Below are positions 1 to 1,461 of a stretch of 64,000 bases of DNA, piece after piece (position 1 is the first letter of the stretch; each line of letters starts with the position of its first letter). The notes under the pieces are model-generated. The model saw nothing but the letters and a program-made list of their open reading frames with translations, did no database searches and was not told the DNA's origin. The translations under genes were made by a program, and so were the position numbers. This DNA comes from a virus. The stretch covers positions 1 to 64,000 of IMG/VR virus record IMGVR_UViG_3300025132_007963; one strand, written 5' to 3'.

Positions 1-327
1 TTCTTGTTTGATTATGTTCGTTATGTTCTTTTCGACCGAAATTTTTTTTTGTTCTAGCTTTTCTTGCTTTTCGCTTAGTTTGACTTTAAGCATTGATCTA
101 AATGATTCAAAGTCATCCTTATTCCAACCACCTTCCGGAGGTTTTATGTTTTGTGGCTCAGAAGGTCGAGTTTCCTTACTACGCGGGTCTTCCGGCTCAG
201 ATCCTTCCGGTGGAACGTTCTTGTCAGGTTCAAGGCGCCCAGCGGGCGGCTTCGCGGCGTCAGGGTCTGTCATACGGACTTCTTTGATCAATGATATGAT
301 ATATTGTTTAAGCTCAGATTTATTCAT
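1..327 (-). CDS. Hypothetical late protein, 3'-truncated by window edge (MNKSELKQYIISLIKEV...)
   Basis: Hand-translated open frame from ATG at 327 to position 1, not in ORF track. SD AGGAG and TCTATTTA motif upstream. N-terminus resembles that of 527..931. Confidence 0.7.
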   Translation of the reverse strand, partial: MNKSELKQYIISLIKEVRMTDPDAAKPPAGRLEPDKNVPPEGSEPEDPRSKETRPSEPQNIKPPEGGWNKDDFESFRSMLKVKLSEKQEKLEQKKISVEKNITNIIKQE

Positions 328-526: not shown

Positions 527-931
527 TTAGTTGCGGCCTAACTTTGTAGCGTAAAGTGAATCCTTGGCTAGCGATTTAAGTATACGCTCTAGGTTCCCGA
601 AAGCAACCTGGATTTCATACCGGTTGCTGTCATCTATCCCTAATGCTTCCATATCTAGATTTAAATCGCGGTCTAATTTATCCAATGTTTTTAGAGCGCC
701 TTTTAATCGGCTAGCTAATCGCGCAGCCATCTTAAGGTCTTTGGGATCTTCACCTTGATAAGCAACGTCTTGTCCGGACAAACGCGATGCAGCTTTGGCT
801 GCGCCCTTAGCTACTGTAGCTGTACCGGACTTTGCTAGGCCGGCTAGCTTTGCCCGTGCACGATCTAAAAAGCCCTCTTCGATTAGCGCTTCTAGGATCA
901 TATCTCTTAATTCTGATTCTTTTATTTTCAT
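527..931 (-). CDS. Hypothetical late/virion-type protein (MKIKESELRDMILE...)
   Basis: 134-aa ORF, SD GGGAG, ACTAATTA motif at 960-967 upstream. Confidence 0.75.
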   Translation of the reverse strand: MKIKESELRDMILEALIEEGFLDRARAKLAGLAKSGTATVAKGAAKAASRLSGQDVAYQGEDPKDLKMAARLASRLKGALKTLDKLDRDLNLDMEALGIDDSNRYEIQVAFGNLERILKSLAKDSLYATKLGRN

Positions 932-1040
932 AATTTTTGGGGTCTCCCTTTTCTACACTTAATTAGTACCCTGTCTAATCTTAAATCTCTAAAAATTTCA
1001 TCGGGATTAAACATGTACTTAGCGCACCCCGTAGGACCCT

Positions 1041-1108
1041 AATGATTACAGGGACTTACATTGCCGGCCCGGGGGGAGGGGGGGTACCTATAAGCCACTG
1101 AAATCATT
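1041..1108. repeat. 18-bp inverted repeat (IHF-like arms) flanking a G6-A-G7 tract
   Basis: AATGATTACAGGGACTTA (1041-1058) vs reverse complement of TAAGCCACTGAAATCATT (1091-1108): 15/18 identical, 32-bp spacer. Confidence 0.8.
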
Positions 1109-1337
1109 AAGGAAAAAAGAGTGCTTTTGTTAACGCTTCTCTAACTGTTTGATATTATAATCTTTTTAACCCTCGCGAACTTTCCACGCCCTCGACCGTC
1201 AATCCTTTGGCGTCGACGGGTCGCGATCGGAGGCGTTAAGATATGCACGCCGGGAATTGTTGAGTGGTTGCGGCGGGTTACGATAGCATGCGCCGTTAAA
1301 CTTCTTACGTTCCCTTTGAAGCGTTAATAAATAATCG

Positions 1338-1366
1338 TTGACAAATGCGTCGTGATAGTGTATAAA
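1338..1366 (+). promoter_or_regulatory. sigma70-type promoter on plus strand, antisense to early transcription
   Basis: TTGACA-17 bp-TATAAA; no plausible ORF downstream. Confidence 0.6.
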
Positions 1367-1461
1367 GTCCCAAGCGTTCATAGAGTAACAATCCTAACCA
1401 TTAAAGGTAATTTAAAACTAACAATGCTAATGTGTTAAAAGGTTAACGACCTGTTAAACTT

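Follow-up and report, generated by a model that had tools for sequence, protein, structure and literature searches.

Introduction

Among the described elements that come closest to the locus reported here are the replication origins of phage T4. [quoted passage not shown] A second point of comparison is human CSB 2, in which G6AG7 is the commonest variant (PMC5027508) and whose mechanism requires just two G-runs on the non-template strand (PMC5027508; PMC3488243; PMC4176368).

The locus resembles the T4 origins in several respects. As with oriE and oriF/oriG, it is a short (~100-250 bp) non-coding module beside a promoter-like word in a T4-type phage. Like oriE, it carries evenly spaced direct repeats of about one helical turn in many members of its family, the window not among them. 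Like all three, it sits at what would be a transcription boundary, and the A/T-richer stretch downstream of it may be compared with the oriF/oriG unwinding element. It differs from them in number and conservation: T4 origins are several per genome and share no motifs, whereas the module is single-copy and conserved, and a T4-type origin would not normally be expected to retain 110 nt throughout so diverse a family. Moreover, paired C/G homopolymer runs like those of the module have been described for no T4 origin, and no MotA-type middle promoter was identified at the module.

Results

The phage and its family

The window, by which we mean the whole stretch of 64,000 nucleotides that was analysed, is the first 64 kb of a 192,821-nt IMG/VR viral contig. 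The minus strand, hereafter the gene strand, carries 123 of the 130 ORFs of at least 150 aa in this contig, and because nearly all genes share one strand, the GC skew is negative and of one sign across the entire contig, without an inflection. The gene content includes a large DNA polymerase, a ribonucleotide reductase, GroEL, a CobS/CobT-like pair and a large terminase of T4 gp17 type. The best relatives of this terminase (Terminase_6N match at 88,989-89,597) are T4-type large terminases of myophages, the nearest from cultured phages being those of Flavobacterium phage immuto (43.6%) and Microcystis phage Mel-JY01 (44.6%). With the CobT-like protein as the query, 168 IMG/VR relatives were retrieved, many of them contigs of 185-194 kb. 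BLAST of the first 6 kb, and of one relative's element, against cultured phages gave no match, which makes the family an uncultured one; its members are uncultured ~190-kb marine T4-like phages of the lytic T4 type.

CheckV scored four of the five relatives queried as 100% complete, and since several relatives of similar size are rated complete, its figure of 71% for the present contig is too low. The relatives' genes on the left of the module have their syntenic counterparts at 177-192 kb of this contig, and the open frame that runs off its left end (window 1-327, minus strand) continues in frame into the one at its right end (192,468-192,821). Because the ends are syntenic and their frames join, the contig is, to judge from its termini, an essentially complete circular map whose assembly break falls ~1 kb from the module. 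The gene at the right end encodes an HExxH-containing, metallopeptidase-like protein and lies 3-5 kb downstream of the module in relatives.

The G6-A-G7 tract and its inverted arms

A sequence-only reading of the window had drawn attention to two 18-mers, at 1041-1058 and 1091-1108, that face each other across a GC-rich core. Both are present together with the core and are complementary at 15 of 18 positions; a repeat search gives arms of 22 nt each, 82% complementary (18/22) and 32 nt apart (Table 1). The G6 and G7 of the core are the sole paired G/C runs of at least 6 in the whole 192,821-nt contig. It had also been proposed that the arm motif is common to the early cassettes and inverted here, and this is borne out: allowing up to three mismatches, the window holds four copies (1041+, 1091-, 2323+ and 2555+) against 0.10 expected, and the copy at 1091 is the only inverted one. 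Those at 2323 and 2555 each cover the stop codon of a small gene and are closely followed by a strong sigma70-type promoter.

We also observed that arm-motif copies at 2323-2340, 2555-2572 and ~2935-2952 overlap TAA stop codons of small genes. Read on the gene strand, these three could fold into small hairpins that have a NAAUCAUU-type loop in common but differ in their stems (CUU/AAG, CUUG/CGAG), each just upstream of an A-tract and a sigma70 promoter.

Table 1. Features at and around the module, in window coordinates.
Feature	Position	Strand	Remarks
Last small gene upstream	1199..1381	-	60 aa, no family match
Inverted-repeat arm, gene-strand upstream side	1091-1112		Slot of the TGACA repeats in other clades
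GGTACC next to the tract	1083-1088	+ (as read)	
G6-A-G7 homopolymer core	1071-1084	+	G6 at 1071-1076, G7 at 1078-1084; gene strand reads C7-T-C6
Family-conserved core module	983..1089	-	Sole nhmmer match in the 192.8-kb genome, E 7e-20
Box 2	1053..1066	-	Window version CGGCAATGTAAGTC of the nearly invariant CCGGAATGTATGTC; eight positions at least 90% conserved
Inverted-repeat arm over box 2 and spacer	1037-1058		Same orientation as the copies at 2323 and 2555
Spacer, box 2 to box 3			Length fixed at 30-31 nt, sequence variable
Box 3, GCTAAGTAC	1015..1023	-	Only exact copy in the genome
Box 4 (CGATACCGC-type)	999..1014	-	Window version weaker than family GTTTTCGATACCGC; alignments A2 and A3
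Box 5	985..997	-	A/T tract plus -35-like word, TAGAGA here and TTGAGA in most relatives
Late-type promoter word CTAATTA	960..966	-	35 nt before the ATG at 931
Downstream gene	527..931	-	134 aa, no family match; N-terminus of MK..S.L....I.E type

The concern that the G-run is a homopolymer artefact of assembly can be dismissed, the independent evidence being its conservation in other viral contigs. The tract is also unchanged in contigs of two public runs, both of which may be the source samples and so do not count as independent support. An exact search with the 18-mer made of G6AG7 and TACC found 13 other viral contigs, most of which share further words of the window at fixed distances. In two contigs (L011 and L013) the 18-mer stands in an unrelated context: ACTGG, another G7 run and CCCACTCACCC come after it, and it lies ahead of a gene of the same strand. 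These contigs may hold a distinct element that has the tract in common with the module. The assembly of a related run from another study, with a strain that differs from the window by a few per cent, is interrupted between 1059, where a 6.2-kb contig stops, and 1386, where the next starts; the break could reflect either divergence or poor assembly of the homopolymer.

An ordered module shared across the family

On the gene strand, the tract heads a non-coding, single-copy module of about 110 bases, built of ordered blocks at 983-1089. The family consensus runs, in gene-strand order, G-run and loop, C-runs, CCGGAATGTATGTC, spacer, GCTAAGTAC, GTTTTCGATACCGC, A/T tract and TTGAGAT. The G-run with its short loop precedes the C-runs in ~70% of members. 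The C-runs number two or more and are split by T or TA, so that the paired runs are typically laid out as G-run, short loop, C-run, TA, C-run. At least two C-runs of at least 5 are found in 42 of 47 members, and when the anchor used for searching excluded the tract, 17 of 17 true family matches still had C-runs directly upstream; on these two counts we regard the C-runs as intrinsic to the module. Most relatives have G6-TA-G6 or other variants rather than G6-A-G7, and many have a GGGGTACCCC-type palindrome inside the module. Indels in the C-runs disrupt every reading frame among family members. Averaged over the family, AT content peaks at 73-77% between +70 and +90 from the box-2 anchor, within an A/T block of 67-77% over ~50 nt.

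A position-weight promoter scan of the family gave a consistent signal at box 5 only, where the -35-like word and the A-tract are conserved and the -10 is variable; it found no conserved antisense promoter, and no box of the module matches the sigma70 -10 hexamer. A sigma70 promoter at box 2 or box 3 was rejected by inspection, the hexamers there being without the key -11A/-7T pattern. Also rejected was a sigma32-type arrangement (CTTGACA, 10-14 nt, C-run), which only some members of the TGACA clade fit and whose -10 word differs.

The module occurs once per genome, in one constant orientation, in 50+ related IMG/VR contigs. An nhmmer profile made from 41-47 module copies gave 53 matches in family loci, one of them in the window's genome. 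When a covariance model (R1, sequence only) was run on five complete relatives, four had a single copy each; in one complete relative the module was found only across the contig ends, and in one with terminal repeats it lies 5.9 kb inside. Using the CobT-like gene as an unbiased marker, we found the module always downstream of it and in the same orientation, 0.4-9.9 kb away, while module positions within contigs vary widely. The genes on its two sides differ between relatives. The module is a fixed point amid gene turnover, kept while the genes on both sides are exchanged. PHROGs and Pfam searches with nine neighbouring small proteins returned nothing usable, and a search for related loci with the 134-aa neighbour found nothing.

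We found no description of the module, no Rfam family for it and no match in cultured phages. A copy in host chromosomes was considered and rejected: a genome scan gave three matches, of which one is a chance match and two belong to the family and stand on short MAG contigs (L120 and L121). These two carry complete modules and are labelled Vicinamibacteraceae and Neomarinimicrobiota MED589; most likely they are phage contigs binned into bacterial MAGs, which makes them weak host evidence.

Folding of the module

Folded as gene-strand RNA, 1030-1120 of the window gives a single long hairpin of -31.2 kcal/mol (z -4.76, equalled by 0 of 200 shuffles), whereas the same stretch folded as plus-strand DNA has a z of -1.25, the RNA hairpin gaining from G-U pairs. 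Such a fold would be expected of a structured non-coding RNA or riboswitch-like leader made from the gene strand, and several relatives have short hairpins in the spacer, with differing stems. We nevertheless consider an RNA of this kind very unlikely. RNAalifold on 41 family sequences returned 0 consensus pairs, the mean fold z of the family is weak on either strand (-0.3 to -0.7), a search of 850-1250 against Rfam 15 at E<=10 gave two chance lncRNA matches only, and neither a promoter nor a terminator frames the module. A tRNA, tmRNA or T-loop relic was likewise discarded, as ARAGORN and Rfam find nothing at the site; at the Rfam 15 gathering score, only tRNAs pass in the window. Because consensus pairs and Rfam matches are lacking and the folds are weak, the module probably acts as a DNA sequence and not as a folded RNA.

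Clade-specific words in the flanking slots

Across the family, the complementarity between the box-2 side and the upstream side is at best 6.26, against 5.90 in control DNA. On this comparison a family-wide inverted repeat across the C tract was rejected, and arms are confined to the window and two closer relatives. In those two relatives, ACTTACAT / ATGTAAGT arms bracket the C tract, and one of them folds into a nested hairpin like that of the window. Judged by these alignments, the arms are the lineage-specific part of the locus, belonging to this phage and its near relatives, and not its conserved part. The arm-tract-arm arrangement proposed from the window thus holds in relatives for one half only: the tract and module are conserved in 50+ contigs, the arms in near relatives alone.

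In this phage the slots hold inverted AATGATT-type arms. Many relatives have TGACA direct repeats there, with a period of 11-13 nt: as many as six on the upstream side and two within the spacer, in some cases in inverted orientation. The window's own clade lacks these repeats; the upstream arm of the window aligns where the proximal TGACA repeat stands in the others. Contigs such as L066, L051, L061, L060, L092 and L093 have up to six TGACA words upstream of the C tract, at alternating distances of 11 and 12-13 nt. In some contigs the arrays are inverted to TGTCA; their phasing and core are of Pho-box type, and they also recall the iterons of T4 oriE. The core of the E. coli Pho-box is CTGTCAT (PMC4415409). 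Another clade, among the closer relatives of the window (L096, L097 and L099), has copies of the palindrome TACATGTA (CTACATGTAG) gathered about the module.

Lambdoid ori and immunity regions and the hexamer arrays of P1 pac are iteron or operator regions whose binding words vary between clades. The module is like them in that a constant core is flanked by words that differ by clade; it is unlike them in that it comes without an identified cognate binding protein and belongs to phages of the lytic T4 type. The clade-dependent words of the slots point to matching DNA-binding proteins still to be found.

A boundary in promoter density and base composition

We compared the two sides of the module in the 39 relatives that have 3 kb on either side of it. 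From its upstream to its downstream side, the density of strong sigma70-like promoters drops from 3.0 to 1.26 per 3 kb (Wilcoxon p 6e-6, n=39) and GC content from 45.3% to 40.0%. In relatives, small, tightly packed genes of early type go on downstream of the module, and the boundary is therefore one of promoter architecture and not strictly of early against late genes. The sequence-only reading had placed the site at an early/late junction. What stands of this is the step in promoters and GC, with early promoters upstream and CTAATTA downstream; the strict division into early and late does not. In the window, the N-termini of genes downstream of the module resemble head-loading tags noted at other places in the genome.

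No 7-mers of this genome are more enriched in the 80 nt ahead of gene starts than the CTAWTTA words, which many genes have at a distance of 27-45 nt and without a -35, as in T4-style late promoters; this makes CTAWTTA, on sequence grounds, a candidate late-promoter consensus of the phage family. Sites of this word (often ACTATTTA) were noted at 960-966, 22,351, 24,998, 30,273, 61,056 and 62,868 (first base, gene strand). On the plus strand, inside the gene at 1199-1381, lies TTGACA, 17 nt and TATAAA (1338-1366), directed away from the module; the promoter consensus scan omits this site, the last base of which is A.

These data bear on the possibility, in our estimate somewhat unlikely, that early transcripts from the promoter-dense cassettes run into the module and that it serves there, where the early region ends, as a transcription barrier or as a regulatory region, with the C tract as a putative Rho-loading (rut-like) site. 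The boxes and clade-specific repeats would then bind regulators that time the passage or restart of polymerase into the co-oriented downstream genes. Rho-dependent terminators of the lambda tR1 type have C-rich rut sites, and the likeness lies in a C-rich, G-poor sense RNA at the end of an early region without an intrinsic terminator. In the family, it is always the RNA-sense strand that carries the C-runs, with almost no G over 20-35 nt, and in many relatives a G-run/C-run hairpin immediately precedes the C tract. Within 200 nt of the module there is hardly a canonical intrinsic terminator (3 of 47 relatives have one upstream, the window element none), so that nothing else would stop early transcripts. 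The drop in sigma70-like promoters, the strong sense-RNA hairpin of the window, and the resemblance of box 5 to an A-tract with a -35 word, next to which a late-type promoter word follows in the window, all favour a barrier as well. Unlike a rut site, however, the module has a C tract of only 13-35 nt followed by sequence-specific boxes, and a rut site needs no ~100 nt of such boxes in order. Late-type promoter words, and hence early/late transitions, occur at many places in the genome, whereas the module is single-copy. Furthermore, no box fits the sigma70 -10 hexamer, and there is no conserved terminator hairpin with a U-run.

Genome ends, IHF and G-structures

The sequence-only reading had offered the site as a candidate terminus, pac site or origin. 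Of these, an origin stays in contention (see Discussion); at a terminus, cos or pac site, terminase would cut and the arms would bend the DNA. The module is indeed single-copy, many relatives have the GGGGTACCCC-type palindrome, and repeated words stand on both sides, as at P1 pac; in addition, the window's contig ends ~1 kb away, and the contigs of one related run break at the module. The large terminase, however, is of the T4 gp17 type, which means headful packaging, and the map is circular. The module is internal in complete contigs, including one with terminal repeats, and its contig positions vary widely. We therefore take a terminus or pac site to be extremely improbable.

The reading of the arms as IHF sites fares no better. 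Like the IHF sites of lambda cos and of origins, the arms are AT-rich 18-mers with an ATCAT core beside a special site. Unlike them, neither arm matches WATCARNNNNTTR, and the arms are not conserved across the family. In the window, WATCARNNNNTTR has 15 matches against 11.25 expected, which is chance level. The exact IHF-consensus match closest to the arms, TATCAAACAGTTA at 1142-1154 (-), precedes the C tract by ~58 nt in the direction of the gene strand.

The suggestion of a G-quadruplex also loses ground. A canonical intramolecular motif is present in 9 of 47 members only; the canonical form (four runs of at least 3 G, loops of 1-7 nt) is absent in the window, where the fourth run, at 1051-1053, lies 17 nt off and a 17-nt loop would be needed. 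Modification of DNA with 7-deazaguanine would forbid G-tetrads; of the genes for it, TGT/DpdA was not found and QueC gave a sub-threshold match only.

A priming switch resembling CSB II was weighed separately. In such a switch, the G-runs would be non-template for an antisense transcript, and an RNA:DNA hybrid quadruplex or R-loop formed by them would halt the polymerase, so that a primer is left behind. Its appeal is that G6AG7 is also the commonest human CSB 2 variant and that two long runs are conserved in 42 of 47 members. The module and human CSB II have in common two long G-runs split by one base, variable run lengths, and a place in a non-coding control region near promoters. In mitochondria, however, the G-runs are non-template, whereas for essentially all genes of this phage the template strand is the one that carries them, and the family shows no antisense promoter at a constant position. 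Most relatives, moreover, have G6-TA-G6 or other variants, which is not the mitochondrial layout of a single A, and there is no homology between the two elements. A switch of this kind seems quite improbable. Put more broadly, the paired homopolymer runs might be a DNA structural switch (a hybrid quadruplex, an H-DNA-type triplex or a slipped hairpin) that marks the single place at which early replication is primed or gated, which we hold to be improbable. If it were true, bacterial viruses would possess, in this module, their equivalent of mitochondrial CSB II, and clade-specific proteins would dock on the exchangeable slots beside it.

Discussion

The module is most likely a control site that works at the level of DNA, either a start of replication or a transcription barrier, and not a genome end. 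Among the specific functions, we prefer, tentatively and at somewhat less than an even chance, an origin-type cis module of the T4 oriE or oriF/oriG kind, placed at the downstream end of the early cassette region. The preference rests by analogy on the layout, which combines conserved boxes and a GC clamp with clade-specific repeats, an A/T stretch and a promoter-like word.

On the origin reading, a clade-specific protein and conserved factors would dock on the module, the A/T stretch would open, and a transcript or primase would start the leading strand. The site of opening or loading would be fixed by the paired G/C runs, serving either as a clamp or as a structure that extrudes (a G-run/C-run hairpin, a triplex or a G-structure). 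The inverted arms would be this lineage's version of exchangeable binding slots.

In favour of an origin we count a single copy that is near-universal in the family, fixed spacing without a conserved fold, evenly spaced direct repeats in many relatives, repeated words that depend on the clade, a GC-rich core followed by an A/T-richer block, C-runs intrinsic to the module, and the boundary in promoter density and GC. Against it, the one-signed GC skew gives no support, the A/T stretch is modest, the TGACA repeats are missing from the window's clade, and no initiator gene is linked to the module. A purely transcriptional role would fit the boundary data equally well. The transcription barrier is a close rival. 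Both readings could hold at once, since T4 origins are promoters in their own right and stand at transcription boundaries.

T4-like phages are among the most abundant marine viruses. To our knowledge, their origins and early/late control points are essentially unmapped outside T4. The module offers a precise handle on them: ~110 bases, single-copy, easily recognised and present in at least 50 contigs of a family without a cultured member. It is kept more faithfully than the genes around it and is usable as a metagenome marker of the family, including for contigs misbinned into bacterial MAGs. In function, it is a candidate origin or control cassette of T4-type phages.
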